Made by a program: the position numbers and the translations under genes. This document shows, piece after piece, positions 21,004-54,565 of a DNA stretch of 64,000 bases; position 1 is the stretch's first letter, and each line of letters begins with the position of its first letter. Source of the DNA: a virus. Lineage: Duplodnaviria > Heunggongvirae > Uroviricota > Caudoviricetes. Where the stretch lies: IMG/VR virus record IMGVR_UViG_3300017655_000275; one strand, 5' to 3'. Under the pieces are notes generated by a model. The model worked only from the letters and a program-made list of their open reading frames with translations, did no database searches and was not told the origin of the DNA.

Positions 21004-22002
21004 TCAGATGAATTCGAGACCATTCCTGGTCAGAAGGCCTTTGTCGATCTCATCCAGCAAGCGGAACCGCAGATGGTTCGGACCCGCGTAGAATGCCGGG
21101 TTCTTGCGCTTGAACCAGGTTCCTCCCAGCCTCGCATATGCGAGGTCGAACACCCGTTTGGCATGACCGTCTTCACCAAAGGTCTTTGCCATCCAGTCGC
21201 CTGGATCTCTGGAGAGATCGTCCTGGTGCACCAGGATCTGATGCATCATCAAATCCCATTCGAGATAGCTGCACCCGATCTGAGCTTCGTCGCCGGCGTC
21301 GATGCCAAGACCGTCGGTTGGCGTCGCCCGCCACGTCCGCTCGGGGACGCCGATTTCCCTGGACATGGCAGGAACTTCCCAGGACTTCAGGAAGCCCTGA
21401 AGGGGGGAAATATCACCCACATCGCCGTGCAATGTCCAGAAACCGGCCGTCAGTTCGGAGAAGTTATCCGTCGATGCCACGACGGCACCGGTCGATCTGG
21501 CCCGATCGTAGAGCGTGATCATCCGCAGCCTCGCGCGGATATTGCCTCGCCGGATCCTGGCATCCTTGCTGTCATCCAGGATGCTGGGATCGCTGGCCGA
21601 TTGCGCCTCCAGCATTGCATCATACATCGGGCTGAGATCAAAACCGATATGAGCGATGCCGGCTGCCTCGCAGGCCTCCACCCCACGCTCGGTTTCGATG
21701 GGTTCCTGGTGGATCGGCAAGGTCATGCCCGTGACCTGCCAGCCCGCCTTGGCAAAAAGATGCGCGGTCAGAGCGGAATCCACGCCGCCAGACATGCCGA
21801 GCCAGACTTTCGAGACGCCGTGCGTGGTTCTGTAGAGCTCGAGCTCATGAACCAGGTTGTCGACATCGGTCGCCAACTGAGGAACCGCGCGGAAGCCGCC
21901 ATTGGTAATCCAGTGGTCGAATCTCATCTGAAACCAGGGGGACAGTTGAGGCCTGGCGGCTTGACGGGACAGGTCAAGAACGTCTTCCTTGAGATCGCGC
22001 AT
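21004..22002 (-). CDS. nadE: NH3-dependent NAD(+) synthetase NadE (no glutaminase domain)
   Basis: LGMSGGVDSA, GNIRARLRM, STDNFSE...GFWTLHGD, PTDGL. Confidence 0.92.
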   Translation of the reverse strand: MRDLKEDVLDLSRQAARPQLSPWFQMRFDHWITNGGFRAVPQLATDVDNLVHELELYRTTHGVSKVWLGMSGGVDSALTAHLFAKAGWQVTGMTLPIHQEPIETERGVEACEAAGIAHIGFDLSPMYDAMLEAQSASDPSILDDSKDARIRRGNIRARLRMITLYDRARSTGAVVASTDNFSELTAGFWTLHGDVGDISPLQGFLKSWEVPAMSREIGVPERTWRATPTDGLGIDAGDEAQIGCSYLEWDLMMHQILVHQDDLSRDPGDWMAKTFGEDGHAKRVFDLAYARLGGTWFKRKNPAFYAGPNHLRFRLLDEIDKGLLTRNGLEFI

Positions 22003-22017
22003 GGGATGTATCCTTTC

Positions 22018-22045
22018 CTACTTATAGTCAATCTACAAATAAGTC
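22018..22045. promoter_or_regulatory. Putative NAD-regulon operator upstream of nadE, overlapping a TTCACA-N17-TAGATT promoter on the minus strand
   Basis: CTACTTATAGTCAATCTACAAATAAGTC; 24/28 identical to the site upstream of pncB. Confidence 0.75.
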
Positions 22046-22078
22046 GGACATCTGTGAAGAGGGAAAATTCCCATCGAC

Positions 22079-22960
22079 TCAGATTTGCTCCTTCATTGCG
22101 GTTTCCAAGGTTATCCCGCGCTCCGCGAGAAGTCTTGCCAGCATGTCCTCGGTGCCACTGAATTCAGCTTCGGCCGGAGCAAGCCTTTGGCCGCATGCGT
22201 CCAGGATGCGGCGCGCCAGGTTCTCGTCCCCCATGATGGCAAACTGTAGCGCTTCCGGCGGAAGAGACCTGATCAGATCGAGGAAGTCGTTTCCCGCTCG
22301 CCCAATTTCGAGGATTTCCTCGATATCATGCCAGATTTCGCTCACAGGAACGGATCCGTCAGGGAGATCGCCCTCGATCCTTTCCTCGAAGAAATCCGGA
22401 ACTGACAATTGCAAGACGGATGCGGACCACAGTGAGCTGATGACCGAGACACCGGCTGTGAATGCGGCCGGATCGCTCAATGCCCGGTGAAGACCAGGTG
22501 CGCCTCCTGCCAACTGGGCCACGTAGCCGGAGAACAGGGGGATAGCCGCAAGCAATTCCCATGCCGGGGCGGAGTCCGGAGCGAGATGCGTGTAGCCATT
22601 TCCCATCTCGCTTGCCAGGCGCAGTCTTTCCGTCGACGACAGGTCGGCTTCAGCAAGACTCTGGGAGCGCATCAGCTCTTCGAAGCCGACAGGCAATTCC
22701 TGTTGAGCAAAAGCCGATAGAAAAGCGTCTTCAATGCTGCCGTCGTCAAGGAAGGTCCTGACCATATCCAGATGGCATTTCGCAAACCAATCATCTTTTC
22801 CTTCCATCGGCAAAAGTCGCATGCTGAGGCAGGGGTAGGTGGCCGAAATATCCTTGACCGCTTCCTGCATGCGTTTGCTCTGATAAGCCGGAGGAATAGC
22901 ATCATTGTCGATTCTGTCCGGGATGGCCCAATTAAGTAGGGCCTTCAAGTTTCGCAACAT
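22079..22960 (-). CDS. Hypothetical protein, 293 aa
   Basis: Long ORF, no recognised motif. Confidence 0.7.
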   Translation of the reverse strand: MLRNLKALLNWAIPDRIDNDAIPPAYQSKRMQEAVKDISATYPCLSMRLLPMEGKDDWFAKCHLDMVRTFLDDGSIEDAFLSAFAQQELPVGFEELMRSQSLAEADLSSTERLRLASEMGNGYTHLAPDSAPAWELLAAIPLFSGYVAQLAGGAPGLHRALSDPAAFTAGVSVISSLWSASVLQLSVPDFFEERIEGDLPDGSVPVSEIWHDIEEILEIGRAGNDFLDLIRSLPPEALQFAIMGDENLARRILDACGQRLAPAEAEFSGTEDMLARLLAERGITLETAMKEQI

Positions 22961-23057
22961 CTGTCATCCTGTTTCGCTGGCCGCGCCTATCCTTCGAAGA
23001 TCAGCACGACCAGGAAAAATGAAAGATTTTCCACGGCAGTATCTGCTTGTCCGGCCC

Positions 23058-24206
23058 TCAGGTCGGCCGGAGTTCGGAAAAGTCGCTGACAGTGCCGAAC
23101 TCGAGCCTCTCACCGATGCGGTCGAGAACTCCGTTCTGATAGGCTTTGGCGTAAGAACCCTGATGATGTGCTCTCCATGCCTTCATGCTGTCGATCTTTT
23201 CACCCTGTTCCGTTTCGAACCCAGCGACGAAATCGGTCAGGAATTCGACCAGTTCATCAACATCCTTTGGATATTCAAGATATTTTCGGCCACTGTCATG
23301 GCGATGCATGGTAATTCCCAGGCGATCCATAACATCGCGATGAAGCCCTCGCCGTCTCGCCACAGCCAGTGAAGACGGATAGACGGCCTCCCATTTCGTC
23401 AGGGATGTAATCACACCGCTCTCGACATGTTCGGAAAGACGGCGCGCAACTTCCTCCACGAATTCCTCATCATCATCCGGATAGGCTTCCCGCATACCCC
23501 TATGTGCGAAGTCATGGTTTATCTTCTCCCGCTGGGGACTGGGCGCGACCGCCATGTTGTCGTAGTCCGTCCAGCCGAATTCGGATGCGATCCGTCCCAC
23601 GATCTTTCTGCGCATCGCTGTTCTGAAGTTGACGGGATCCTCCGTCTTCCATTCGGCAATCGACGACAATGGCATCCCGTTCGGGAACCGTTTTCTCGCA
23701 GTATTATCGCAAATATGGTTGAAAAAATCCGGCCCAGACCGTCCGGTTGCGGGGATGAATGCGCACCACTCCTGGACCGGCCTGGATGCCCACTGCATTC
23801 GAACAGCAATTCGGTCGAGCATGTCCATCGACATGGCGATCTCGTAGCCGATCTCATCCCGCATTTTCCAGTCATCGAAATCGCGGGGGGGTCTTCCGCG
23901 AGGGGCAGATGTTCTCACCCAGTCGACCAGGAAATTGAGCTGATTGTATGGGGTGGTCCGGAAGTCCGCCGGTCGGGAGGATGAAATTCCGAACTGGTCC
24001 ATGATCCCCTGCGTGAGATCATTGTTGCGCGCGCTCATCCATCCGGCGCGGTCGACGGTCCACCATTCGGCGACAGTCGTAACGGTGAGATTTCTCGCCG
24101 AGCTGATTCTCGACAATCTTTCCGAAATCCGTTTCAATGCAGAAGAATATTTTTCGCTATCGCTCCCGCCCTTGTCGGAAGCGACCCTGTGGTCTGGATA
24201 GTTCAT
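23058..24206 (-). CDS. Helical repeat protein (about five 60-aa units), paralog B
   Basis: Repeated S/T-x2-EW-x3-D-x2-Y-x2-A pattern; probable start MNYPD. Confidence 0.75.
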   Translation of the reverse strand: MNYPDHRVASDKGGSDSEKYSSALKRISERLSRISSARNLTVTTVAEWWTVDRAGWMSARNNDLTQGIMDQFGISSSRPADFRTTPYNQLNFLVDWVRTSAPRGRPPRDFDDWKMRDEIGYEIAMSMDMLDRIAVRMQWASRPVQEWCAFIPATGRSGPDFFNHICDNTARKRFPNGMPLSSIAEWKTEDPVNFRTAMRRKIVGRIASEFGWTDYDNMAVAPSPQREKINHDFAHRGMREAYPDDDEEFVEEVARRLSEHVESGVITSLTKWEAVYPSSLAVARRRGLHRDVMDRLGITMHRHDSGRKYLEYPKDVDELVEFLTDFVAGFETEQGEKIDSMKAWRAHHQGSYAKAYQNGVLDRIGERLEFGTVSDFSELRPT

Positions 24207-24327
24207 CTTAATCCGTTTACGTGGTTCGTGAGATTCGGCGGATATTCGCCTATAGGCGGTGATAGGGGAGTTCATCTCGCGTTGCAATCGATTGTAGCAC
24301 ACAACCGGCATGCGTGTTCGAAACGCC

Positions 24328-25470
24328 TCAGTCCGCGATCTCTGCCGCGGTCGGCTGCTCATGCCGCTCCGATTTGTAGGTGATTTCCATGGCCTTGGCG
24401 ATCGCGGGGAACAGACCGCGCTCGACTGCCCTGGTGTATGACATCGGATGATAACGATACCAGTCCAGGGCAGAGGTTATCTTCTGTCCTTTCTTCGTGC
24501 GGATATTTCGAACGATATCCGTCACGAAACGGATGAACATCTCATCGGTGCTTGGAAAGGCAATGACGTTCCTGAACCTCCTGGCCTTGATCCGCCCGCC
24601 AGTGAACTTCTCCATGATCTGGTAGTGCAGGTTGCGCTCAACCGCTTCTCCGTAACAGGCCTTGTCGATCTTTCTCCATTCCACCAGGCTGTTCACAACG
24701 CGCCTGCCGGCTCTCCGCCTGAGCCGTTCGACGCCGAAGTCGATGAATTGCTCCCTGTCCTTGGGATATCGTGCAGACGGGTCCGCCGCCTCTCGCTTCT
24801 GCTTGGCCTTCTCGGCTTTTGTCAGCCGGATCTTGAAGTTTCTGTCGAGTGTGGGCTCCACCCATCTGAACTCGCACAGGATACGATAGACAAGCCGAAG
24901 CTTCTCGGCCGTCCTGTAATTGCTGAAGTCCTTCATCGCCCACTCGGTCGATGAGGAAATCGGCATGCCATCTTCGGCGCGATAGGCAGCGACATTGGCG
25001 CAAAGCGCCTCGCATGCTTCTTCAAGATCGAGATCGTGCATCACGAGTACGGCCTGCCAGGCCTCTCGCGGCTTGCCTTTCCATTTGAACGTTACGCAGA
25101 GCTTTTCGATCAGGTCATGCGTTGCCGCATGGTCGTAGGCAAGGGGGTCGGCCTCTTTCCATTGACGGAGTGTGGAAGGAATACCCTTGCCTCCAGCATT
25201 GATGAGCCGGATCCTGTCAATCAGATAGTTGTAAAGGTCAGCCCTGCCATCCGGAAATATCGCATCCCCGCCATTCCTGATGCCGAACCTGTTCATCACC
25301 TGATCAAGCATGCCCGCGCGCGACGCCAGCAGCCAGCTTTCGCGATCGTAGATCCACCAGTCGGCGCCTGTGAGGATAGATACGGCCTCCCGCTGTTCGC
25401 AATGCAAAATGCGGCGTCTCACCTCTTCGAGAAGGTTGGGCGAATTGCTGGAGCGGGATGGGAGGCCCAT
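24328..25470 (-). CDS. Helical repeat protein (about five 60-aa units), paralog A
   Basis: Same repeat unit as the downstream paralog. Confidence 0.78.
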   Translation of the reverse strand: MGLPSRSSNSPNLLEEVRRRILHCEQREAVSILTGADWWIYDRESWLLASRAGMLDQVMNRFGIRNGGDAIFPDGRADLYNYLIDRIRLINAGGKGIPSTLRQWKEADPLAYDHAATHDLIEKLCVTFKWKGKPREAWQAVLVMHDLDLEEACEALCANVAAYRAEDGMPISSSTEWAMKDFSNYRTAEKLRLVYRILCEFRWVEPTLDRNFKIRLTKAEKAKQKREAADPSARYPKDREQFIDFGVERLRRRAGRRVVNSLVEWRKIDKACYGEAVERNLHYQIMEKFTGGRIKARRFRNVIAFPSTDEMFIRFVTDIVRNIRTKKGQKITSALDWYRYHPMSYTRAVERGLFPAIAKAMEITYKSERHEQPTAAEIAD

Positions 25471-25544
25471 GGAGATCGACTTCCGATTTTACATAGATGG
25501 ATCATCCATAGGGCAAACGTGACCGTTCATGCAATCCCGCATCG

Positions 25545-25607
25545 CTGACCAACCACGTCGCGCGACAAGCCCCCTCCAAGCTACGGCATGGGTGGGGGGG
25601 GTCATGA
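25545..25607 (-). repeat. About 62-bp structured intergenic element, copy 1
   Basis: Reverse complement matches 34769-34829 (shared GCTTGGAGGGGGCTTGTCGCG and ACGTGGTTGGTCAG). Confidence 0.85.
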
Positions 25608-25756
25608 AGGATTGCGGGCGAACATGCAGCAAGAGAAGCTCGCTCCGAGCGACCTGGCGCGGGAAGGATTTTCCAGTCATGGAAAGGCCCCCAGGACATT
25701 AATCACGCAAAACTTTCGCATGGAGAGTATATCCTGTATCCAAAAAGGAGGTTCCC

Positions 25757-26524
25757 ATGCATATTCCGTTTCCGCCGACGCTTGCCGGCATTTCCGCGCG
25801 CAGTGCCCGCGAGGCGGTAAGAACCAGACAAGAAAAAGCCAGGGGCCAACGGGCATACATTCCCCAGGACAGGGACGATACGCATGACATCGCCGGCTAC
25901 ATGACCCCGGACGGCAAGGTGCATCTCGTCCACGACGTCTACAATCCGACGATGCCGGACGCTGCAGAACCCGGCCTGGGAACCATGGTGAGCGAGCTCA
26001 AGCACTATCCAAACGACTCGTCGATGTATGTTTCCCATATCCAGGATTTCCGTCCGATGTCGCTCCTTCAGGACCAGGGTATGGTCGTCGATGAGACTTC
26101 AGCCGCCATCGTCACCAGGGACGGTGAGACCGCCATCCTCATCGCGACTGACCGAAGAGAGATGAATCACATGCTGGACGAGATCGCCGGTCACGATATT
26201 CTTGTCGCACATGGCAATATCGTTCTGCACAATGTTGCTCCAGGAGAAGCCGTGGCGTGGTTTGGCGCGACCAACACCGTTGGGGGCGGAGTCGAGATCC
26301 GCGGTGCAATGAGCAGGGAAGATCTCGCGGAAACCCTGTCGGAACGCTACGCCTTCATCGACAGGGGACGAAACTGTGACGATTTTCTCGCCAACCTGGA
26401 GAGGCATGCCGAGAACGCGGGGTGGTCACTCGCAATCCAGAGCCGCAGCGACATGGTTCACGTATTCGAATCGAAATTTGGCGTGAAACTCTCGATCGGC
26501 ACCTTTGATTCGCCAGGATTTTGA
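25757..26524 (+). CDS. Hypothetical protein, 255 aa
   Basis: AAGGAGG RBS; no recognised motif. Confidence 0.75.
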   Translation: MHIPFPPTLAGISARSAREAVRTRQEKARGQRAYIPQDRDDTHDIAGYMTPDGKVHLVHDVYNPTMPDAAEPGLGTMVSELKHYPNDSSMYVSHIQDFRPMSLLQDQGMVVDETSAAIVTRDGETAILIATDRREMNHMLDEIAGHDILVAHGNIVLHNVAPGEAVAWFGATNTVGGGVEIRGAMSREDLAETLSERYAFIDRGRNCDDFLANLERHAENAGWSLAIQSRSDMVHVFESKFGVKLSIGTFDSPGF

Positions 26525-26535
26525 TTGGCGTTCAT

Positions 26536-26562
26536 GGAAAGCGCGCCGGCGGCGCACTTTCC
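26536..26562. terminator. Terminator-like hairpin between convergent genes
   Basis: GGAAAGCGCGCC-GGC-GGCGCACTTTCC. Confidence 0.65.
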
Positions 26563-26574
26563 GATTCCTGCCGG

Positions 26575-27006
26575 TCAGGCGGAATTGATCTCGATGGACC
26601 TTGCCTGCTTGGCCTCGGGGATCTCCCTCTCGAGGTCGATATGGAGCAGGCCGTCGGCGAGGTTTGCGCCACTCACTTTCACATGCTCAGTCAGATGGAA
26701 TACCTGCTTGAATGAACGTTGGGCAATGCCCTGGTGGAGGTAGCTACGCGCTTTCTCTTCTGCCTTCTTGGAGCCCGCAATCAGCAAGCTGTCCTGCTCC
26801 GTCGTGACCTGCAGCTCCTCCGCGCTGAACCCGGCCACGGCAATGGTGATGCGATAGCTGTTCTCGTCGATCTTTTCGACATTGTGAGGTGGGAAATTCG
26901 ACAGGGCGCTTCCACCGATCGTGCAGGCGCGATTGAGGAAATTCGAGAGATGGTCGATGCCGATATTCGAGCGATAGAGCGGCGAAAGATCGAAGCGAGC
27001 GTTCAT
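26575..27006 (-). CDS. ibpA: Small heat-shock protein IbpA (Hsp20)
   Basis: FDLSPLYRS, FPPHNVEK, YLHQGIAQRSF, LADGLLHIDL. Confidence 0.95.
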   Translation of the reverse strand: MNARFDLSPLYRSNIGIDHLSNFLNRACTIGGSALSNFPPHNVEKIDENSYRITIAVAGFSAEELQVTTEQDSLLIAGSKKAEEKARSYLHQGIAQRSFKQVFHLTEHVKVSGANLADGLLHIDLEREIPEAKQARSIEINSA

Positions 27007-27066
27007 TGGACATCCTTTCCAGCAATGTGATCGCTATTCCACCCGGACCCGTTATGGCACCCGGTG
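27007..27066 (-). promoter_or_regulatory. ROSE-like RNA thermometer in the ibpA 5'UTR
   Basis: Last hairpin ACAU-UGCU-GGAA-AGGA-UGU pairs U(U)GCU (bulged G) with the AGGA Shine-Dalgarno. Confidence 0.75.
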
Positions 27067-27072
27067 CATCCC

Positions 27073-27100
27073 ATCTAGGATGAGGCATGAATCTTTCAAT
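27073..27100 (-). promoter_or_regulatory. RpoH (sigma32)-type promoter of ibpA
   Basis: ATTGAA-N15-CCTAGAT on the minus strand, close to the alphaproteobacterial CTTGAA-N15/16-CCTATAT consensus. Confidence 0.6.
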
Positions 27101-27129
27101 AAAATTCGCATGAAATTTTTAACTACGTC

Positions 27130-28329: not shown

Positions 28330-28388
28330 TACATGGAATCCTCGACAGAAGCCTCATCTTCCGTTACAGGTTTTCGCAAGCATGTTCA

Positions 28389-29428: not shown

Positions 29429-31570
<2,142 letters not shown>

Positions 31571-41988: not shown

Positions 41989-42070
41989 AAGCCCTGATCG
42001 ATCGGTTCCAGCAATCCACAGGTAAGCAAGGGTTTAGGTTCAATCCTTAAACATATTCGCATGAATGGCG

Positions 42071-42099
42071 TTGCGGCAATCGGGCCACGGGAATACAAT
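42071..42099 (+). promoter_or_regulatory. sigma70 promoter of the PARP gene
   Basis: TTGCGG-N17-TACAAT. Confidence 0.7.
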
Positions 42100-42136
42100 C
42101 CACAAGGACTTTCATTTCAGGGACGTATTTCTTCTC

Positions 42137-43426
42137 ATGCAGGGTTCTTCCGAGACAAAGATGTTCATCCTTACGGATGCGAAAAATAACAACAACAAAT
42201 TTTGGGAGATCTCCATCGACGGATCCGGAACCGTTGCGACCCGGAACGGGCGGGTCGGATCCAAAGGTCAGTCTCGCGTTCTTGGGAATGGTCGCAGGCT
42301 GTTCGATTCCAAGATCCGGGAAAAGGAACGCGGAGGCTACAAACCGATCGATCTCGTCGGGGCGCCGGCATCAGCAGCCAATATCAATGGCGAGGCCTTG
42401 GTGACGGCCGCGGAAGAACAGATCGGGCAGGGCAATCCGGTGGTGATCGGGCTCGTCCGCGAGCTTGCGAAAATCAACAGGCATCAGATTCTTGCCGCAT
42501 CCGGCGGTCAGATGGATCTCGACCTCTCAACTGGAGTCATCAGCACGCCAGTAGGTGTCGTCACCGGCGAAAACGTGGCAAGGGCCCGGGCCATGCTGCA
42601 GGGCTTCGAAGGTTTTGTTTCCGCCGGAGACTTCGACAATCCGGCCTTCATACACCCGCTCGAACAATATCTGATGCTGGTGCCGCAGAAGGTTGGATCC
42701 CGCCGCGGTTGGCATCGTGATTTCATCCGCGGGCTGGAAGATCTGGTGAAGCAATCCTCTCTTCTGGATCAACTCGAATCCTCCATCGAGATCGCCGAGC
42801 AGCGCGTCAAAGACGCGAAGATGGCGGGCGACAAGCCGGAAATCGAAAAGATCTTCGATGTGGCAATGCGGATTTCCGAGGATGGAAGGCTCCGCAACCA
42901 GATCCAGGACTTCTTCGAGAAGGGCCGGCAGCGCATGCATGCGTCCCGAGATCTGAAAATGGCCAGGATCTTCGAGGTGTCTCTTGGAGGCATGAACAGG
43001 GAATTTGCGGAAGATGGAGAGACGGTCGGCGGTATCCGTCAGCTCTGGCACGGCACGCGCGCACATAACCTGATTTCGATCCTGAAAAGCGGATTGATCA
43101 TTCCGAAATCGAACGGCTCGATTCATGTCACTGGACGCATGTTCGGCGACGGCCTCTACTTCAGCGACCAGAGCACCAAATCGCTGAATTATGCCTACGG
43201 ATACTGGGATCGAGGTGCCAGGGACGACCGGTGCTACATGTTCCTGGCGGATGTGGCGATGGGTAAGTCCTGGCACCCCAATCGGACAGGATCAAACGTG
43301 CGGCCGCCTGCCGGCTATGACAGTGTCTTCGCCCGTGGCGGCCAGGACATCGTCCACAACAACGAGATGATCGTCTACAGGACCAGCCAGGCGAAGCTCA
43401 ATTACCTCGTCGAATTCGAAGCATGA
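42137..43426 (+). CDS. PARP-like ADP-ribosyltransferase (WGR - helical regulatory domain - ART)
   Basis: NNKFW...RNGRVGSKGQ (WGR); LWHGT, GRMFGDGLYF, KSLNY, NNEMIVY (H-Y-E triad). Confidence 0.92.
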   Translation: MQGSSETKMFILTDAKNNNNKFWEISIDGSGTVATRNGRVGSKGQSRVLGNGRRLFDSKIREKERGGYKPIDLVGAPASAANINGEALVTAAEEQIGQGNPVVIGLVRELAKINRHQILAASGGQMDLDLSTGVISTPVGVVTGENVARARAMLQGFEGFVSAGDFDNPAFIHPLEQYLMLVPQKVGSRRGWHRDFIRGLEDLVKQSSLLDQLESSIEIAEQRVKDAKMAGDKPEIEKIFDVAMRISEDGRLRNQIQDFFEKGRQRMHASRDLKMARIFEVSLGGMNREFAEDGETVGGIRQLWHGTRAHNLISILKSGLIIPKSNGSIHVTGRMFGDGLYFSDQSTKSLNYAYGYWDRGARDDRCYMFLADVAMGKSWHPNRTGSNVRPPAGYDSVFARGGQDIVHNNEMIVYRTSQAKLNYLVEFEA

Positions 43427-43440
43427 AAGGAATGTGAAAA

Positions 43441-43971
43441 ATGGATTCTGGAAAGATCTTCAGTGCCGAGGTTGCACCTTCGCTCATCCTTATGGATGTC
43501 TTGGGGCGCCGCAATCCGGTCGTAACCGCGGAGCATGCGCTTTTCGCCCTCGACTATGCGAACAAGCTGCATGGATTGGGCGGTAAGGGGATCGCAAAGC
43601 GTGTGGATGATGATTCAGGAGTGCTGGACTATCGGGGGATGTTCATCCTGCATTATCGCTCTCGCGCAGGCAGAGCGACGAAGTCAGAGATCGCCCGTGT
43701 CGCACGGATCATTGCCTCCAGCCAGATCCGCAGGAACGATTGGCCGGTGGCCGGTGAAACGCTTTTCGTGACCGGGAGTCGCGCGCTCGTCTATCCCGAA
43801 ATCGCAGCCGTCGGCGCCTCGACCGTCCCGTTCCTTGTTTCGACCAGCATCTGGTATAACCACAACCGTGTCACCGAAGCTTTCCCGTCAACGAAGGCCC
43901 AGGAGCAGATGCTTCTCGAAGACATCAACTCCCGCCTGGATGACGGTGAGGTGTCCGTCCATCGCCAGTAA
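43441..43971 (+). CDS. Hypothetical protein co-transcribed with PARP
   Basis: 14 bp after the PARP stop; shared terminator downstream. Confidence 0.7.
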   Translation: MDSGKIFSAEVAPSLILMDVLGRRNPVVTAEHALFALDYANKLHGLGGKGIAKRVDDDSGVLDYRGMFILHYRSRAGRATKSEIARVARIIASSQIRRNDWPVAGETLFVTGSRALVYPEIAAVGASTVPFLVSTSIWYNHNRVTEAFPSTKAQEQMLLEDINSRLDDGEVSVHRQ

Positions 43972-45758: not shown

Positions 45759-46874
45759 TTAGAAGGACATGGACGGTATGCGAGCCGACTCGACCTCCTC
45801 CATAGCTCTGCCTGCCTCGTGCCCGCACAGCCATTGCAGGCTATATCCGGCTGGTTCAGCGAAAGCGACCAAGGCGCGATGAAGCGCGTTTCGTGTCAAG
45901 CCGACGGAGTCGGCAAAGCGCTCGACCCTGATCTCCTGACCAAATCCGCGCCCGAGGAGATCGCCGGCCACGACACAGAGCAGATCGCGACTGCCTCGGG
46001 GCATCCATTCAAGGTCCGGATCATATTTCAGGCACTTTTCCATCGCATTGATGGCATCGTGCAGCTCATCGAGCTTGTATCCGATCTCTTCCAGTTCGTC
46101 CTCTATGGTCATCTCGCGCTCCTCGATCGAGAGGAACTTCGCGAAGACCAGGAACAGCTTTTGCATTTCGGACAAGTCGGGGGAGGGGGGATCGGCATAG
46201 AAGAAGTTTGTCCCGAAAGGAGGCGAGACGCGATCCGGTTCCATGACCCTGATCCAGTTGTCGATCTTGATCAGGGATTTCAGACCTGCTGCCTGTGCCG
46301 CGCCATAGAGTGCAGGGCCGTCCTGCAGGTGCTCGACCGGATCGGCAAGCAGGCTCCGCAGGCGGCCGGCGTCCAGCAAGGACACCTCTCCCTTGGCCAG
46401 GCCGGGCAGTTCGGCCGCTTCTGCCAGGTCAAAGCGAGATGTGGGGGATGCCTTCCCGATCATGGCGGCTATTGCCGCTTCCGGCGCATGGGCGTTTCCC
46501 GAAAGAAAGCCGGCCATGAAGATGCCAGGGCGCATGCGCTGCGCCTGCCCGATGCCGCCTTCGTCATACTCGTCGTTCTCGCCGAGATAGATGTGGGGGC
46601 GGTCCGGACTGGTCATGGCCCAACGGGTCGGATCGAGAATGCGGCCGTCCTGCAGGCGCAGCCAACTGTGCTGCTGCATGCCGGCGCGTGAATAGACCGA
46701 ATCCTTCGAGACCCAACCGGTGAAATGTCCGCGGACCAGGCGCATGCCTTCCGTCGGCATCCTGTGGAGGATAGCCTCGGCGATTCCATGACAGTTTCCC
46801 GGCCAACGATCGAGCGGGATACCGATCTCAGCGGCCACGATCTCGGGATCCAGGGGAAAGGTTGGATTGGACAT
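45759..46874 (-). CDS. Hypothetical protein with N-terminal transglutaminase/papain-like Cys-His-Asp motif
   Basis: GNCHG, QHSWL, ILDPT spaced like a transglutaminase-like triad; probable start MSNPT. Confidence 0.55.
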   Translation of the reverse strand: MSNPTFPLDPEIVAAEIGIPLDRWPGNCHGIAEAILHRMPTEGMRLVRGHFTGWVSKDSVYSRAGMQQHSWLRLQDGRILDPTRWAMTSPDRPHIYLGENDEYDEGGIGQAQRMRPGIFMAGFLSGNAHAPEAAIAAMIGKASPTSRFDLAEAAELPGLAKGEVSLLDAGRLRSLLADPVEHLQDGPALYGAAQAAGLKSLIKIDNWIRVMEPDRVSPPFGTNFFYADPPSPDLSEMQKLFLVFAKFLSIEEREMTIEDELEEIGYKLDELHDAINAMEKCLKYDPDLEWMPRGSRDLLCVVAGDLLGRGFGQEIRVERFADSVGLTRNALHRALVAFAEPAGYSLQWLCGHEAGRAMEEVESARIPSMSF

Positions 46875-47361
46875 CGGAAAGGTCGGTCCTTGGAAGAGGC
46901 ACGACAAGGATAATGGGAAAGGAAGAAAATCCAAAAGACAGACTGTAAACAGATGAAGAACAAAAAATGATCGTTGCACTTCTCACTAAACGAGAAAGAT
47001 AAATAAAAAATAGCAGTTCCACGCATGAGAAAAAATAAAATACCAAATACTGAACAATCCTCACCTGAGGTAATGGAAAAGAGATGATACGCCACTCTTC
47101 TGCATGGACAGGACATGTCGAAAGGTTGCCTCACCGGCAACAGCAGACAGACTTATCATCAAAATGTGGAAAAGTATTGTCCTCCCTCTTCGAAAAAGCT
47201 ACTCTGTATGCGAAAAGGTTCGATCGGCCGCCGGCTCGACCAGGAAACGGTCGAGATACCGGGCGCCGAGGAGCCGCAGGGCATGCGCGGTATTGGACAG
47301 CCCCTTCGTATACCAGACTTTCATGGATTTTCGGTTGCTCTCATTTGGAAAGGGTTGAGCT

Positions 47362-48207
47362 TCAGGGGGAAGGAGTTTCGGATTCTGGCTCCGGTATTCC
47401 GATCAGGGAAGCAAAGCGGCCGTCGTAGAGGCTAGCCCTGCCGTTTCCGCCGATCTCCCAGACCCGATAGCCGCGGCGATGAGCCATGCGGAGGAGCGAC
47501 CCGACAGGAAGGCGCTCCGCGATACCGTCAAATCCGAATCCTGGCGCATCTGAGGCCCGGAGTTCATCGCGGATCTGTCGGAGAGCGGACTGCTGCAGCT
47601 TCCATGTGATGTCGCGCGGCGTCAGGATAAGGATGAGCGCCATTTCCGTTCCATCGCCCCCGGTCAGAGGTCCGGAACCGGGATGTGTATAGCCACGGTA
47701 ATGACCGGTCATTCCGGTCATGTAGCGCAGATCGCTTGCGATGTCCCGTGGAGGCTCGGATCCCAGGATCCTCTTGACCTGGGCCAGTGGCATGGCGTCC
47801 CACCGTGATATCCCCGCAGCGGACGATCCGTCCAGCCAGGAATTCCACACCCTGACCGCAGGGTCGGGGTGATATGCCAAGCCCTCTTCCTCAAAGCCCT
47901 GCATCGGTCGGTGTCCGGGTGGCAGGGGAGCCAGGCTCGTGCGACCCTCGATGCCGTGCTCCAGGATGAGATCGGGACGATCCCAGACGAAATTGTAGGC
48001 GCTGGAAGTCAGGCTGATACCGACGCCCATTTCGCTGGCGAAGCGGTAAGCATGATCCCAGTCATCGACAGGGTTGTTGGTCTTGATGCGATGTTCACTG
48101 CCTCCCAGCCCATCGGGCACCAGGTGGATGCCACGATAGCTCTCCGGAACCCGGCTGTCGTAGTCGACGGTGAGAAGAAATGACTCCGGCGTCTTTTTCA
48201 GCGGCAT
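47362..48207 (-). CDS. Hypothetical protein; N-terminal domain shared with the PncA extension
   Basis: VDY...PESYRG...TNNPVDDW...SS...FVWDRP. Confidence 0.72.
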   Translation of the reverse strand: MPLKKTPESFLLTVDYDSRVPESYRGIHLVPDGLGGSEHRIKTNNPVDDWDHAYRFASEMGVGISLTSSAYNFVWDRPDLILEHGIEGRTSLAPLPPGHRPMQGFEEEGLAYHPDPAVRVWNSWLDGSSAAGISRWDAMPLAQVKRILGSEPPRDIASDLRYMTGMTGHYRGYTHPGSGPLTGGDGTEMALILILTPRDITWKLQQSALRQIRDELRASDAPGFGFDGIAERLPVGSLLRMAHRRGYRVWEIGGNGRASLYDGRFASLIGIPEPESETPSP

Positions 48208-48731: not shown

Positions 48732-49188
48732 TATTCATTGCGGTTTCTTCGTTGGGATTGAAATTCGGCGGCGCATGTGTCGGCATTTCCGTCCAGGCAA
48801 TTGGATCGACCGGAGTCCAGCGACCGAAGGCCATCCAATGAGCCGCATGGCTACCTTCCTGCGCCCACCGCATCTGCTTCTGACCCCAAGCCCCAAAATC
48901 GCCGATGATCCAGCGGCCATCCTTTGGGGCATCAGCCATGGTCTTCCAACAATCGCGTTGGTTCGACGTCGACATGACCAGATATGGTAGAACGGCACTC
49001 TCGCGCCAATGTTCTGCCGCAGCCATGAGTGGATCCGGGCTTGTCACTCCGGCCAGGGTCAAATCCCAGGACGCCCAGAATTTTCCTTCCTCGTGGCAAA
49101 TACTGAAAGACTTCCCCGTGATAGGACAGGTGGCGAATAGCGTGTCGCGCTGTTCCCACATGAGCGGTTTCAAACAGATTTCCGACAT
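48721..49188 (-). CDS. Phage-like protein with DUF551-like C-terminus
   Basis: WKTMADAPKDGRWII...PIAWTEMP. Confidence 0.6.
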   Translation of the reverse strand: MSEICLKPLMWEQRDTLFATCPITGKSFSICHEEGKFWASWDLTLAGVTSPDPLMAAAEHWRESAVLPYLVMSTSNQRDCWKTMADAPKDGRWIIGDFGAWGQKQMRWAQEGSHAAHWMAFGRWTPVDPIAWTEMPTHAPPNFNPNEETAMNIGN

Positions 49189-49193
49189 CTGTC

Positions 49194-49997
49194 TCAGTCT
49201 CCCAGACTCTTCGCGGTTTCATCAACGGGATCATAGGTGCGGAACTTGCCGTCATCGCGCAGGATCTGCATCTCACCGGTTGCTGTGTGGACCACCCTGG
49301 TTCCGACAGGGTGCTGCAAGGCCAGCGCCTGGAGAAGCGATTTGCAGCCTTGGGGAGCCGTGTGAACCTCGACCGGCACACGCATCCCGGGTGGGTAGAC
49401 CTGCTCGTAGAAACGGAAAAGCTTTTCGTCGACCTCTGCTTGCCAGTCGGGGTCACGCGCCTCGATCAACGCCCGCACCCTGCTGGACGAATATGCCTGG
49501 CCAAGAGTCCGGTCGGCAATATGGATGCGCCGTCCGGTAACGGCATCTTCCCAGACCTCAAACCCACCGCTGCTGTAGCTGGGCTCTCCTTCCAGGGAGC
49601 TGAAGTGACCTGTATACCAGCGGGCTTCCTGCTTCGATCCCGCATAGAAATCAGTCGGAGCCGGCAGGTGCTGCGACCGGATCTTCGACAGGACATAATC
49701 GATCCACTCATCCGGGTGATCGGTCGCCCCGAGATCCTGCAGAAAGACATGGCTGAACTTGTCGCCCCAGAGAATCTCATGAGCCGCCAGTTTCTCTTCT
49801 GCCGTGAGGGGATTCCCCGGCTGCCGAAACTTGTCGCAGGATCCAAAGCCGATGATGTTGAACCCGTTGTCCCGGATCATCCTCTGCTTCAGAACGGCAT
49901 GGCCGTGGTGCTCGATCTGGCCACGGGTGATCATCAGGCCAACCCTGTTCTCGATCCGGTTCGACATTTCAGCCATGATATCTTTTTGAAACTTCAC
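49194..49997 (-). CDS. nadM: NadM-like NMN/NaMN adenylyltransferase
   Basis: TRGQIEHHGH (HxGH), IIGFGS, NPLTAEEK, SSSRVR; coupled to nudF. Confidence 0.75.
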   Translation of the reverse strand: MKFQKDIMAEMSNRIENRVGLMITRGQIEHHGHAVLKQRMIRDNGFNIIGFGSCDKFRQPGNPLTAEEKLAAHEILWGDKFSHVFLQDLGATDHPDEWIDYVLSKIRSQHLPAPTDFYAGSKQEARWYTGHFSSLEGEPSYSSGGFEVWEDAVTGRRIHIADRTLGQAYSSSRVRALIEARDPDWQAEVDEKLFRFYEQVYPPGMRVPVEVHTAPQGCKSLLQALALQHPVGTRVVHTATGEMQILRDDGKFRTYDPVDETAKSLGD

Positions 49998-50623
49998 ACG
50001 CCCACCTTCTGATTTCCCGCCGTGATCCGAAGCTCGGGCGCCAGAACCTCCAGACGGAACAGCAGCGTCGTCAGGTAGCCGTTCGCGGGCTTTCTCCGGA
50101 TCTCCTCCATGGCCTGCTGTCGCGGCATGGCGCGAGGCAGCGTGTATTCCGCCTCTGAAGCCAGGCTGCGGATGGTATTCTCCACCTCCGACAGATCGGC
50201 TTTCGCGATGAACAGGTGAACCATCTCGCTCGTGCCACCAGGGCTCGGGAAGATCGTCACTTTGTCGATGATCTGCTCGGCCGCCAGTTCGAGACCGGCC
50301 TCTTCCTGCGCTTCGCGCAGAACGCAGAGCAAGGGCTCCTCGCCGGGCTCAACCGAGCCCGCAACGATGCCAAGGCTCCAGCAATCGTCACCGTCGAGAC
50401 CTGCAGCGAGATGTCCGATGCGGAATTCCTCTACGGTCAGCACGGCGTCCATCGACGGATCGTAGACCAGGATCGCAGCCGATTGACCGCGTTCGAAAAC
50501 TTCCCTGGTGATCGGTTCCGACAGGGTGCCGTCGCCGATGTCATGACGAACCGTGTAGCGATCCATCTTGAAAAATCCGTCATAGGCGCGCTCACGGGAG
50601 ATGACTTCGACTTCCTTTGCCAT
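49994..50623 (-). CDS. nudF: ADP-ribose pyrophosphatase (Nudix) NudF
   Basis: REVFERGQSAAILVYDP; Nudix box GSVEPGEEPLLCVLREAQEEAG; SPGGTSE. Confidence 0.9.
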   Translation of the reverse strand: MAKEVEVISRERAYDGFFKMDRYTVRHDIGDGTLSEPITREVFERGQSAAILVYDPSMDAVLTVEEFRIGHLAAGLDGDDCWSLGIVAGSVEPGEEPLLCVLREAQEEAGLELAAEQIIDKVTIFPSPGGTSEMVHLFIAKADLSEVENTIRSLASEAEYTLPRAMPRQQAMEEIRRKPANGYLTTLLFRLEVLAPELRITAGNQKVGV

Positions 50624-50633
50624 GAAAGGCTCC

Positions 50634-51185
50634 TCAGTTTCTGGTGCCGTAAACAGCTTCAAGCGCGTGCAGGCAGGCGTTTGAAACCGCAATGACATCA
50701 GGATGCAGGTTGGGCTTCTGTGCTGTTCCGCCGGACGCAATGAAATTCCGGGCACCTGCATGAATGACAGAAAAAATCTCACCGTTTCCTGCAAGCCCGC
50801 AGGAGATGCTGCCGCGCGATGTCTCGATGGTGGCCGCATGGGTCAGGTCTGCGACCCTGTCTCCACTTTCCCGGCGGGGGAAATCATGGATTTCCAATGC
50901 CGATCTGGAAATCGGGCTCATGGCTTCCCGGACAACGGAAGTGATGAATGCGGCAGGATCGTTTGTCCCTCGCTGAGCGCCTTGCGCATAGGGAGACAGG
51001 CCCTCAAGGCTGATGGCGACGATCCCTTTTGTCGCGACTTTCCCGATATTGTAGCTCTGGCTGAAGGCGAATGCCGAGAACGCGAACAGCCCCAGCACGG
51101 CTACGACGAGAAGGGGCCGGGGAGAAGCCTGTCCGTTACCATCCGGGCCGTAACGGAATCCGGGGTCGCTGAGTTGATGTTTCAT
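50634..51185 (-). CDS. Hypothetical membrane-anchored or secreted protein
   Basis: Hydrophobic LLVVAVLGLFAFSAFAFS near the N-terminus. Confidence 0.65.
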   Translation of the reverse strand: MKHQLSDPGFRYGPDGNGQASPRPLLVVAVLGLFAFSAFAFSQSYNIGKVATKGIVAISLEGLSPYAQGAQRGTNDPAAFITSVVREAMSPISRSALEIHDFPRRESGDRVADLTHAATIETSRGSISCGLAGNGEIFSVIHAGARNFIASGGTAQKPNLHPDVIAVSNACLHALEAVYGTRN

Positions 51186-51241
51186 CGCCAGCCTTTCATC
51201 TTTTCGCATGACATCTTATCGTGCGAATATTCTTTCCGCAA

Positions 51242-51730
51242 TTACCGTTTGAGAGCCGGCAGTTGCAGCATGAGGCTGATGGCTTCATCCTCATCATTGA
51301 AGACTGGAACACCGAAGCGACGTGCCGTGACCGCGATATTTCCGTATCGCATGTAGTCGCGATCCGCCTGGATGACGATCGGCTTTCCCGATCCGAAGCA
51401 GATGCCCATTTCCAGCATGGACACGATCGCCATCGTTTCCCCGCCGCAGAGCCGGAAAAACACGGCATCGGCGCGCTGGATATTCTCCAGCTCCCAGGTG
51501 ACCTGCTGGTTGAACACTGTCCCCGGTGTCGGATCCTGGTCCAGGTCGGCATCCCAGTCGTCGCGGCGAGGGTCGAAGACATTGATGCCGGAACTGATGA
51601 AGCGTTCGGCGACGCGCGGCTGCCAAAGCTCCGCGCGCCCCATTTCAATCGAACCGGCGATGAAGACGAACCGGCCTGGAAGATCTGCCGGCGGCACATC
51701 GGGGCTGCGGAAGAGCCGTCCGGAGATCAT
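51242..51730 (-). CDS. Nucleoside 2-deoxyribosyltransferase-like (NDT fold) protein
   Basis: FIAGSI, VFDPRRDDW, QVTWELENIQRAD, SMLEMG. Confidence 0.8.
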   Translation of the reverse strand: MISGRLFRSPDVPPADLPGRFVFIAGSIEMGRAELWQPRVAERFISSGINVFDPRRDDWDADLDQDPTPGTVFNQQVTWELENIQRADAVFFRLCGGETMAIVSMLEMGICFGSGKPIVIQADRDYMRYGNIAVTARRFGVPVFNDEDEAISLMLQLPALKR

Positions 51731-52671
51731 GCGAACAGGACTCCCGCGTCTTTCATGGCCTCGACCTGGCTGGTTACGGTGTCATCCGAAATGCCACGAC
51801 AGGCATCCAGGATAACCACTGCCTCGAAGCCCGCGTCCCGTGCGTCGAGAGCCGAATAGGCGACGCAATAGTCGAGCGCCAGGCCGGCGAACCAGACGCG
51901 TTCGATACCGCGTTCCTTCAGCCAGGCCGCCAGGCCGGTGGTGGTCTTGCGGTCGTTCTCCATGAAAGCCGAATAGCTGTCGATCTCCGGGTTCATACCC
52001 TTGCGAATGATGAGCTGCGCGGCTTTGAGGATATCCGGGTGAAGGTCGAATTCCGCCCCGTCCTCGCCCTGGACACAGTGCTGGGGCCAGAGAACCTGAG
52101 CCCCATAGGGAAGCTCGATGGTCTGGAACGGCACCTTCCTGTCATGGCTGCTCGCAAAGCTGGAGTGATCGGCAGGGTGCCAGTCCTGGGTCAGGACGAT
52201 GGTCCCGAACTTGACCGCAGCTTCCTCCAGCGCACCCATGATCCGGTCACCCTCGGGAACGGCAAGGTTGCCGCCGGGCAAGAAGTCGTTCTGGACGTCG
52301 ATGACGATCAGGGCGTCACGCGGTCCGATCTCATTCATGTTCACCTTTTCCATTTCCGGTTTTCCTTCATTTTGGCGTTTGTCATCTGGATCAGGAACGA
52401 TGATTTCGCGGTTTCGTTCGTCCAGGATCATCATCCATCCAGGCACATCCCAGAGGAAATGAGTGATGCTGCTTCCCTCGAGGACATACCCTTCAAAACC
52501 TGCTTTCCAGTCGAGATAAGTCGACCAGTCCTGCTCCGGATTTCCCGTGTTCCAGCGCAGGGCTTCACGGCGTTCCCGGCCTTCGAGAACGCTGATGACG
52601 ACCCCGCGATACGATCCGGGATCGCCTTCCACGTAGTCGATGTTGACGTGATGGGATGCAGACTTTCTCAT
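51727..52671 (-). CDS. pncA: Nicotinamidase PncA with about 105-aa unknown N-terminal domain
   Basis: IVIDVQNDF, TQDWHP, WPQHCV, IRKG, GLALDYCV. Confidence 0.93.
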   Translation of the reverse strand: MRKSASHHVNIDYVEGDPGSYRGVVISVLEGRERREALRWNTGNPEQDWSTYLDWKAGFEGYVLEGSSITHFLWDVPGWMMILDERNREIIVPDPDDKRQNEGKPEMEKVNMNEIGPRDALIVIDVQNDFLPGGNLAVPEGDRIMGALEEAAVKFGTIVLTQDWHPADHSSFASSHDRKVPFQTIELPYGAQVLWPQHCVQGEDGAEFDLHPDILKAAQLIIRKGMNPEIDSYSAFMENDRKTTTGLAAWLKERGIERVWFAGLALDYCVAYSALDARDAGFEAVVILDACRGISDDTVTSQVEAMKDAGVLFA

Positions 52672-53114
52672 GCGATTTCCGCTCCATATTTCGCCGCGGC
52701 GTGACGCTGGGACACGAGATCGGACGATCTCAAGTCCTCACGGAATGCTGTGCCCATCTTCGCTACCCTGTAGGCGAGGCGGCCGTTGAAATAGACGCAG
52801 GCGGCATTCTCATGCATGACCACGACGGTCGGCGCCGTGCTGAAGGCCTGGCCGGCGACACCGCCGCCGGCGTCCATGCCACCCGCGGTATTGGGCCAGT
52901 TCTGGCTGAACACCCGGTAATCGAGGCTATCCTCGTTGGGACGGGTGATCCGCTTCCTGCCCTGCCATTCATGGGTCACGTCCGGGAGGTCGAAATCCCT
53001 CGCCTTGACCCAGGCAGTCGACAGGGCGAGGATTGGATGGCCGATGTTCATGAAGTTTGCCTCGTTCCTGAAATCTCCCCACCAGCAGATCTGGCGGGGA
53101 GTATAGGGCATCAC
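52668..53114 (-). CDS. Hypothetical protein inside the NAD cluster
   Basis: 4-bp overlaps with both pncB and pncA. Confidence 0.75.
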   Translation of the reverse strand: MMPYTPRQICWWGDFRNEANFMNIGHPILALSTAWVKARDFDLPDVTHEWQGRKRITRPNEDSLDYRVFSQNWPNTAGGMDAGGGVAGQAFSTAPTVVVMHENAACVYFNGRLAYRVAKMGTAFREDLRSSDLVSQRHAAAKYGAEIA

Positions 53115-54475
53115 ACGATGACCGGCGCATTCTCGACACCTTCGGTGCCGAAGACGCCGCGGTAGAACTCGACCTCGGTTTCCGAACCGGTCGCCTTCGT
53201 GAAATTGTCCGAAAGCTTGACCGCCGAGATCCAGGGCGCGTTACGGCCGCGCTTCACGGCCGAAACCTTGCAAACGACCGAGATCGGATCGAGGGCGTCG
53301 CCGCCGCGGGGATCGCACCCCCTGAAGTCGTTGGTCGCCAGAGTCCCCCAGCCATAGCCTTCCCGGATCCGCCCGCGGAACCGGTCATGCAGGGCGATCA
53401 TCTGATCGACATCGAGCCCGTCGGAGAAGAGCTGCAGCCGGTCGCGCGGATCGCAGCCGATATTTTCCCAGAAAGCGATCTTCTCCTCCCCGGCGACGAA
53501 GGGATCCTTGCTGTCCTCGCGAAAGCCCGTCCATTTGCGGATTTCCGGGAACTCCTCCAGGGCATGCTTCAGGAACTGGGTCGATCCGAATGTGTCCGGC
53601 AGGGCCACCAACAAGTTCCCGCCATAGGTCTGCTGCCATTTGCGCAGAACGTCATACTGGCTGCGGAAAAGCTCGCGTTCGCCCATATGGCCTTCCTCGA
53701 TCGCCTTTGCGCGGGCCAATGCGGCCTCGACCATCGGCAATTCGTGAGCATTGGTCCCGATGGCCGGCAGGCCACGACGCATGGCATGAAGCGCGTTTGA
53801 GGTGCCGATGAAATTGGCGCCGAGCTCTTCCTGCATGGCTTCGATGGCCTGCTCCTGCCACAGAAAGCCGTGCCGGCGCCGGGTTCCGAATTCGGCGATG
53901 CCCGGAACGTTGGCGGCTTTCAGGCGCTTCATCTTGTCGACCAGTTTGGACAGCCCGTTGGCATAGAGCACGCGGAGCTGGTATTTCGACATGTCCGACA
54001 TGCCTGCCCGCGAACGCGCCTCGTTCAGGATCGACAGGACATAGATCTCCCAGAGCGTGCACTCGAACCAGGTGCCTTCGAATTCGATCTCATAATCACC
54101 ATCTGCACCGATAGAGATCCGGTAATCGCACAGTCGCAGATTTCGCAGTGCGTCGACGAATTCGCCTGAGAAAATGCCGCGCTGACCATAGAAGGTATTG
54201 CCCTGCAACCAGATCAACTCGGCCTCGCTGAAACGCAGGCCTTTCACGTGATCCAGCTGCGCTTTCAGATCCTTGATGGAGATGGCATCGGCCAGGAGCG
54301 CCTTGGCTGCGGAGCGGTTCTTGACGGCGAATTTCACATGCACATCAGGATGCCATTTCCAGATATAAGCGGCCATCAGCAGCTTGTAGAAATCCGTGTC
54401 GAGAAGCGAGCGGACATAGGGATCCAGCCGGAAATTGTGATTGTGAATGCGTTCGGCAAGATCGACGCTGGCCAT
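53111..54475 (-). CDS. pncB: Nicotinate phosphoribosyltransferase PncB
   Basis: SLLDTDFYKLLM, EFGTRRR, GTNAHE, LPDTFG, FSDGL, AVKLSDN. Confidence 0.96.
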   Translation of the reverse strand: MASVDLAERIHNHNFRLDPYVRSLLDTDFYKLLMAAYIWKWHPDVHVKFAVKNRSAAKALLADAISIKDLKAQLDHVKGLRFSEAELIWLQGNTFYGQRGIFSGEFVDALRNLRLCDYRISIGADGDYEIEFEGTWFECTLWEIYVLSILNEARSRAGMSDMSKYQLRVLYANGLSKLVDKMKRLKAANVPGIAEFGTRRRHGFLWQEQAIEAMQEELGANFIGTSNALHAMRRGLPAIGTNAHELPMVEAALARAKAIEEGHMGERELFRSQYDVLRKWQQTYGGNLLVALPDTFGSTQFLKHALEEFPEIRKWTGFREDSKDPFVAGEEKIAFWENIGCDPRDRLQLFSDGLDVDQMIALHDRFRGRIREGYGWGTLATNDFRGCDPRGGDALDPISVVCKVSAVKRGRNAPWISAVKLSDNFTKATGSETEVEFYRGVFGTEGVENAPVIV

Positions 54476-54537
54476 GTCTTCTTCCTCTCTCCCCAATGGG
54501 ATCATCATGTTCCTTGCAGGTCAGCCTTTTCGATCAA

Positions 54538-54565
54538 GACTTATTTGCATTTTGACTATAAGTAG
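54538..54565. promoter_or_regulatory. Putative NAD-regulon operator upstream of pncB, overlapping the -10 of TTGTCG-N16-TATAGT
   Basis: Minus strand CTACTTATAGTCAAAATGCAAATAAGTC; 24/28 identical to the nadE site. Confidence 0.75.

Follow-up and report, generated by a model that had tools for sequence, protein, structure and literature searches.

The stretch of DNA analysed here (the window; 64,000 nucleotides, IMG/VR record IMGVR_UViG_3300017655_000275, filed under Caudoviricetes) carries a compact cluster of genes for the salvage of nicotinamide adenine dinucleotide (NAD) and, 32 kb from this pncB cluster, a gene for an NAD synthetase, nadE. Copies of a 25-bp operator accompany both loci, and a gene for an NrtR-type regulator lies on the same element beyond the window. 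The genes of the module, with lengths in amino acids (aa) and including several open reading frames (ORFs), are:

53111-54475, minus strand: pncB, nicotinate phosphoribosyltransferase, 454 aa; NF003704 389 bits (cut-off 379), 440 bits to Agrobacterium PncB (PDB 1YBE)
52668-53111, minus strand: small ORF, 127-147 aa; gene callers and homologues place the start at 53051, giving 127 aa
51727-52671, minus strand: pncA, nicotinamidase, 314 aa; NF008623 194 bits (cut-off 174), PDB 2WT9 227 bits
51242-51730, minus strand: NDT-like gene; PF15891 E 4.8e-23, phrog_30579; overlaps the pncA stop by 4 bp
50634-51209, minus strand: orf191, a membrane ORF with a hydrophobic N-terminal segment
49994-50623, minus strand: nudF, ADP-ribose pyrophosphatase, 209 aa; PDB 9DUA 5e-30, 1G0S 2e-27, TIGR00052 96.5 bits
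49194-49997, minus strand: NadM-like gene, divergent adenylyltransferase of the type acting on nicotinamide or nicotinate mononucleotide (NMN/NaMN), 260-267 aa
47362-49188, minus strand: three tail ORFs of 155 aa, 173 aa (Cys-rich) and 281 aa (with a PncA-type N-terminal domain)
21004-22002, minus strand: nadE, single-domain ammonia-type NAD synthetase family, 332 aa; TIGR00552 122 bits (cut-off 64)

Gene content of the module

All genes named in a preliminary description of this DNA (pncB, an ORF, pncA, an NDT-like gene, a further ORF, nudF and nadM within 49194-54475, and nadE) are present on the minus strand at the positions listed above. The 4-bp overlaps that it reported for the cluster hold in part: ATGA/GTGA overlaps join the small ORF to pncA, pncA to the NDT-like gene and, if nadM starts at GTG, nudF to nadM, and the remaining junctions are gaps of 10-60 nt. 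The start of the cluster is preceded by a hairpin and T-run, itself located after an FtsH-like gene. The three tail ORFs follow directly after nadM with spacers of -10 to +5 nt and end at 47362; the pncB operon probably extends through them, which would make ten genes in the transcription unit.

PncB matches the nicotinate phosphoribosyltransferase of A. tumefaciens (1YBE) over its full length and is of the alphaproteobacterial type, and a membership test places it among the nicotinate phosphoribosyltransferases rather than with NAMPT/NadV. The nicotinamidase part of PncA comprises residues ~118-314. Its motifs VIDVQNDF, DWHPxxH, RKG and LDYCV align with 2WT9, with the catalytic Asp-Lys-Cys triad and the DxHxxxH metal site intact. 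It is preceded by an extra N-terminal domain of ~110 aa that is also found on the tail ORF at 47362-48207; among relatives, two loci (L022, L024) have the same fusion and one (L005) has the separate form. NudF has a complete Nudix box, as read from the translation.

The NadM-like protein gives marginal matches as a single sequence (NF002243, 1.5e-5; MJ0541, 0.32). It belongs to a family of ~260-aa proteins with ~50% identity and invariant HxGH-type and ISSSxVR motifs in the alignment, represented in the window copy by HHGH and ISSSRVR, with an extra C-terminal domain. A profile of 22 family members matches archaeal NMN adenylyltransferases (NMNATs) at 7e-6, and the AlphaFold model (pLDDT 85.6) finds its best Foldseek matches in archaeal NMNAT, NadR and bifunctional NadM, with TM scores of 0.70-0.76 by target. 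Both as a family profile and as a predicted fold, the assignment to the NadM-type adenylyltransferases is solid, and the fold and motifs, being those of NadM/NadR-type NMNATs, are compatible with either NaMN or NMN as the substrate. The family is a small one without a Pfam model: of 1.84 billion, 489 representative clusters reach E<=1e-3 and 47 reach E<=1e-30. Pattern scans of IMG/VR and of species-representative genomes confirmed no relatives, at a sensitivity that is limited, as tblastn finds the family on three PLSDB plasmids.

NadE has the SGGVDS ATP-pyrophosphatase motif. Its best PDB matches, P. horikoshii 2E18 and, second, the Francisella NMN synthetase 3FIU, are about equal, and NadE could therefore act on nicotinate adenine dinucleotide (NaAD) or on NaMN. 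The last two steps may accordingly run in either order, from NaMN through NaAD or from NaMN through NMN to NAD. NadM enzymes can take NaMN or NMN, alongside an NAD synthetase or an NMN synthetase (PMC3376133). The combination of NadM in place of NadD with a single-domain NadE resembles the Francisella NadM/NMN-synthetase route, as that work is summarised in a later paper (Sorci et al., 2009, in PMC3376133). It differs from that route in its relatives, where nadE adjoins pncB and encodes a two-domain glutamine-type enzyme, which points to the ordinary NaAD route. In the window, this glutamine-type gene is replaced by the distant single-domain nadE with the same operator.

By gene content, the enzyme set is complete for the conversion of nicotinamide through nicotinate and NaMN to NAD+, and for that of ADP-ribose (ADPR) to AMP and ribose-5-phosphate, as the preliminary description had proposed. 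PncA would deamidate nicotinamide to nicotinate, from which PncB would make NaMN with phosphoribosyl pyrophosphate (PRPP) supplied by the host. The NadM-type enzyme and NadE would finish NAD+, via NaAD or via NMN, and NudF would split ADPR into AMP and ribose-5-phosphate.

Operator copies and the NrtR-type regulator

The operator has the pattern ACTTAT-N13-ATAAGT and spans 25 bp. Its copies in the window (no strand assigned) and the regulator gene are:

54539-54563: operator O1, ACTTATTTGCATTTTGACTATAAGT; overlaps the -10 box of the predicted pncB promoter, after the hairpin and T-run 3' of ftsH
22020-22044: operator O2, ACTTATAGTCAATCTACAAATAAGT; overlaps a predicted -10 box, 18 nt upstream of nadE
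47151-47175: third, operator-like copy, ACTTATCATCAAAATGTGGAAAAGT; one arm mismatch, between the end of the operon and an ORFan at 45759-46979
L011 5606-6298, on a 195-kb ENA contig, ~75.8-76.5 kb in window numbering: nrtR; NUDIX 40 bits, NrtR_WHD 68 bits

The two loci had been described as linked by a shared operator, and this link is borne out: O1 and O2 are identical at 22 of 25 positions, both lie on -10 boxes, and the window holds three matches to the pattern against 0.2 expected, a count reached by none of 100 shuffles. The third copy lies in a 382-bp gap in which an AT-rich stretch could encode a small hydrophobic peptide; an Atlas look-up of the adjacent ORFan gave no usable lead. A fourth copy is found 50 nt upstream of the nrtR start codon, overlapping the stop codon that ends the ART-fold gene ahead of nrtR; 10 of its 13 spacer bases are common to the pncB site. 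The nrtR product has the N-terminal Nudix-like and C-terminal winged-helix layout of NrtR regulators, with a degenerate Nudix box. Its gene belongs to a Macro/ART operon, and ART, Macro and Tpt1 genes are nearby.

This organization is reminiscent of the NrtR regulons (Rodionov et al., 2008; PMC2330246), in which a regulator of the same domain composition is associated with inverted repeats that cover the promoters of pncB, of nadE and of its own gene. ADPR is the established anti-repressor of the family, and characterised NrtR proteins are released from DNA by it (PMC2330246). Most NrtR sites are 21-bp palindromes with a GT-N7-AC core, and divergent motifs occur in some lineages (PMC2330246). 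The present case differs in its 25-bp site lacking that core, in its location on an accessory element and in the placement of the regulator within a Macro/ART operon.

Since the pncB operon, nadE and nrtR each have a 25-bp operator and the element encodes an NrtR, the set is most likely repressed until free ADPR rises, and the operator copies together with nrtR support, at the sequence level, an ADPR-derepressed regulon. The NrtR-type repressor would hold the set off, and free ADPR from NAD+ cleavage would release it. Such cleavage could stem from host NADase defences or from the PARP and ADP-ribosyltransferases of the element itself. In this sensor-controlled design, the putative ADPR-responsive repressor would join two loci 32 kb apart.

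Several observations weigh against this reading. None of the four sites on the element has the GT-N7-AC core, so that the pairing of NrtR with the 25-bp site is one that we infer, and another repressor could bind them. The nrtR gene is found ~12 kb beyond the window and belongs to another operon, one centred on ADP-ribose, and the operator matrix gave no sites beside the modules of three relatives (L005, L007, L008). Finally, the module need not be conflict-related, because on a plasmid of Salipiger sp. CCB-MM3 the same operon, nadE-pncB-nadM-like-pncA, sits among ordinary metabolic genes. On balance, we consider it somewhat probable that the locus is an intact Preiss-Handler salvage module with an ADPR pyrophosphatase, carried by a giant accessory element (at least 195-230 kb) of soil alphaproteobacteria and held off until free ADPR rises.

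Two further observations were made around nrtR. A DUF6283 protein is encoded at the end of its operon (L011 4195-4671), and another is encoded ~10 kb from the NAD module on the Bosea plasmid pANAM02 (L029 2058-2549). In addition, a TGCGAAAA-like word occurs as TGTGAAAA just upstream of nrtR (L011 6300-6330) and as TGCGAAAA upstream of the first cas gene (window 470-490).

Relatives and known systems

With the window proteins as tblastn queries, the arrangement (nadE)-pncB-(nudF)-nadM-like-pncA was found in more than 20 independent loci. These include metagenome contigs (90, 232, 641 and 656 kb; 1.12 Mb) as well as contigs from an NCBI assembly (533 kb) and from a Cereibacter sphaeroides assembly (30 kb); the PLSDB plasmids among them belong to Salipiger sp. 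CCB-MM3 (316 kb) and Bosea sp. ANAM02 (692 kb). A NadM-like gene was also found on a 708-kb plasmid of Bosea sp. RAC05. The Bosea and Salipiger plasmids lack Terminase_6C, and a megablast search with the cluster returned, from plasmids and phages, nothing beyond a 66-bp match in pncB. One relative (L033 1-5290) has genes for DarT and an AcrVA2-like protein on the flanks of its glutamine-type nadE, which itself lies immediately upstream of pncB; this suggests that the NAD module can sit inside an anti-defence island. A Thg1-like tRNA-His guanylyltransferase is encoded beside or near the module in the 533-kb contig (L007 5268-6107) and in Agrobacterium phage Atu_ph07 (L035 14768-15556).

Some of the genes that accompany the enzymes are conserved as well. 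Homologues of the small ORF (56% identical) keep their position just downstream of pncB in two relatives (L032, L033), and homologues of the Cys-rich 173-aa and 281-aa ORFans come after nadM in L005 (10780-12208) and L032 (13285-13845). Pfam, PHROG and Atlas look-ups of the small ORF gave no usable lead; orf191 has no family match, and the 10 kb around the modules of the relatives contain no homologue of it. The NDT-like protein has a PDB match to 4MCJ, an uncharacterised structure. Its PF15891 gene stands beside pncA in the window, in the Sinorhizobium phage Phosso (L034 10710-11162) and in an unrelated metagenome contig (L037 6001-6504). An NDT gene is found near the PARP gene of the Pseudomonas plasmid pMPPla107, and in another contig the closest NDT-like relative adjoins a thymidine kinase gene (coordinate listed: L031 9727-10239). 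As the neighbour is pncA in one contig and thymidine kinase in another, context alone does not fix the substrate.

Among known replicons, the survey of plasmids and phages found the gene set on the Salipiger and Bosea plasmids and in Phosso, and parts of it in Atu_ph07 and pMPPla107. The jumbo phage Phosso (PV764938.1, 469 kb, genes 366-377), which also has an alphaproteobacterial host range, encodes an NH3-type NadE, PncB, a Nudix protein, a NadM-type NMNAT, an isochorismatase-fold PncA and a PF15891 protein in ~7 kb. It differs in gene order, in having nadE inside the cluster, in sequence (25-54% identity) and in its short NMNAT of 198 aa. Its cluster lies between virion genes, whereas none were seen in the present window, and no NrtR gene was found in its record. 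Atu_ph07 has genes for PncB, an ADPR pyrophosphatase, an NMNAT-like protein and an isochorismatase-fold protein. Plasmid pMPPla107 (~1 Mb; NZ_CP031226.1, 634-641 kb) has the order ARH-x-x-pncA-pncB-nadE-x-NUDIX and is, similarly, a giant replicon of mostly hypothetical genes with PARP and NDT genes. Its host belongs to the gammaproteobacteria, the annotation of that stretch lists no adenylyltransferase, the relatedness shown in sequence is that of PARP (41%), and no NrtR match passed in its record. Variovorax megaplasmids carry PARP, pncB, NADAR and NAD synthase genes and an NrtR.

The literature gives further precedents. Li et al. (2024; Microbiome 12:268, PMC11662467) described "NAD-jumbo phages" with complete salvage or Preiss-Handler pathways together with consumers including LigA and PARP. 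They share with the present locus a complete, mobile-element-borne deamidating NAD synthesis, combined with NAD consumers and proposed to serve the element (PMC11662467). They differ in being gut phages, mostly of Bacteroidota, that use NadD (e.g. pncB-nadD-nadE in Kuafu_71); this element has instead a NadM-like enzyme, an ADPR pyrophosphatase and NrtR-type control. Phage NAD synthesis was predicted to counter NADase effectors, with a Nudix enzyme processing the released ADPR, and NadM was reported only together with NadV (Iyer et al., 2021, 2022; PMC7824862, PMC9503650). The preliminary description had seen in the locus a candidate new route of NAD reconstitution, and here it has to be revised: six of the functions are annotated in Phosso, part of the set in Atu_ph07 and pncA-pncB-nadE with a NUDIX gene on pMPPla107, and Preiss-Handler clusters are published (PMC11662467). 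The gene set and the general idea are therefore not new. What the locus adds is incremental: NrtR-type control found on an accessory element, a NadM-like family that is unclassified, and a PF15891 gene that recurs beside pncA.

The module lends itself to comparison with the three tested pathways by which mobile elements rebuild NAD+: NARP1 uses Adps and Namat directly on ADPR, NARP2 uses Nampt and Nmnat via NMN, and NARP3 uses PnuC and NadR on nicotinamide riboside (bioRxiv 10.1101/2024.02.11.579819; PMC13464706). The likeness lies in the proposed purpose, a mobile element rebuilding NAD+ from NADase products. The module differs in that nicotinamide is predicted to be deamidated first and ADPR only to be degraded. 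Membership of NARP1 was rejected, as the ~70 ORFs scanned include no Prs-like/Adps or NAMPT-type protein and the phosphoribosyltransferase is a true PncB. NARP2 was rejected in the absence of a NAMPT, the NMNAT-like enzyme being paired with PncA, PncB and NadE, and NARP3 as neither PnuC nor a NadR kinase domain was found in the scanned window ORFs. The distinction from NARP1 and NARP2 drawn earlier thus stands and extends to NARP3.

The Salipiger plasmid raises the question whether the set is an ordinary niacin/nicotinamide salvage pathway that benefits the host from a secondary replicon or chromosome, without a role in conflict. The alphaproteobacterial type of PncB and the GC content, which is even across the window, would fit this explanation. 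The neighbours in the window, however, are mostly ORFans and defence or anti-defence genes, along with IS605/TnpB and auxiliary aminoacyl-tRNA synthetase genes, and no NadM-like relative was found in species-representative genomes by pattern scans of limited sensitivity. Moreover, the set is carried by the jumbo phages Phosso and Atu_ph07, whose hosts presumably possess their own pncA and pncB. We therefore regard this explanation as very unlikely.

The element and the role of the module

Depletion of NAD+ is a major strategy in bacterial immunity, and only three of the rebuilding routes that elements encode have been tested so far; the locus is a clean, compact candidate for a deamidating version. 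A counter-defence role, one of the two benefits that the preliminary description had inferred, is plausible for the module as a prediction. A stronger form of this idea is that the module is dedicated to it, chiefly rebuilding NAD+ once NADases of the Thoeris, SIR2, DSR or SEFIR type have attacked, which would make it a deamidating counterpart of NARP1-3. The setting is rich in conflict genes, with the Macro/ART/NrtR operon on the element and, in L033, DarT and AcrVA2-like genes next to the module. ADPR-sensing control would suit induction by NADase attack, the jumbo-phage predictions agree (PMC7824862, PMC9503650, PMC11662467), and NARP1-3 provide the precedent. On the other hand, the route costs PRPP and several ATP and would be slow compared with NARP1, and the literature search gave no experiment on any PncA/PncB-based (Preiss-Handler) version and no publication dealing with clusters of this kind in megaplasmids. 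The same operon among metabolic genes in Salipiger also argues against dedication to defence, and the conserved neighbour is the element's own PARP, which points to self-supply. A dedicated function of this kind is in our view unlikely.

Two NAD-consuming loci lie in the window itself:

42065-43971, plus strand: WGR-PARP and a 176-aa partner ORF, an NAD-consuming pair
29438-31570, plus strand: LigA, NAD-dependent DNA ligase, an NAD consumer

The module occurs on giant plasmids as well as in jumbo phages, usually near a eukaryote-like PARP. Homologues of the WGR-PARP (70-73% identical) and of its partner (44-51%) are found 5-8 kb from the module in four relatives (L005, L013, L021, L023), on contigs of up to 656 kb, and PARP homologues also occur in jumbo phages of Xanthomonas and Stenotrophomonas and on plasmids of 0.8-1.2 Mb from Variovorax, Pseudomonas and Vibrio. 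It is possible, if doubtful, that the module mainly feeds a private NAD economy, supplying the element's PARP, LigA, ART-fold proteins and Tpt1-type RNA repair and recycling their by-products. The proximity of PARP, the presence of LigA in the window and of ART, Macro and Tpt1 genes nearby, and the pncB genes of PARP-bearing megaplasmids all favour such self-supply, and jumbo phages that both make and consume NAD are described in the literature (PMC11662467). Many relatives, however, have no PARP beside the module (L007, L016, L022, L024 and the Salipiger plasmid), and LigA is normally served by host NAD pools; self-supply is moreover compatible with counter-defence.

A bolder version of the reading favoured above, an ADPR-derepressed salvage module on an accessory element, is one that we consider quite unlikely: a non-viral giant element would perform ADPR-triggered NAD rebuilding by a fourth, deamidating route with the unclassified NadM-like enzyme, to which the conserved PF15891 N-glycosidase-fold enzyme would add an unrecognised step. 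If this were the case, megaplasmid-type elements, and not phages alone, would escape abortive-infection systems based on NADases. Two proteins that travel with the module deserve attention: the 260-aa NadM-like family and the PF15891 NDT-like enzyme.

That the window is part of a giant accessory element is well supported. Several small sequencing runs of soil metagenomes contain contigs of 195-230 kb that encode proteins identical to those of the window; the public runs listed include no RNA data set. In the ~84 kb that was read, nothing indicative of replication, conjugation or a virion was seen, and scanning 20 ORFans against PHROG yielded a single family, of unknown function, and nothing of virion type. 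The gene content read supports an accessory element without choosing between plasmid and phage, and its support for an extrachromosomal replicon is indirect. Most window ORFs have no Pfam or PHROG family. The recognisable genes comprise an adaptation-less I-F Cas set, a Wadjet-like operon, a methylase, LigA, ThrRS- and TrpRS-like proteins, Hsp20, FtsH, PARP, AbiEii and an IS605 TnpB. At the very edge of the window (1-387) lies the end of a truncated gene with a weak match to DUF4113, a domain that is C-terminal in Y-family polymerases.

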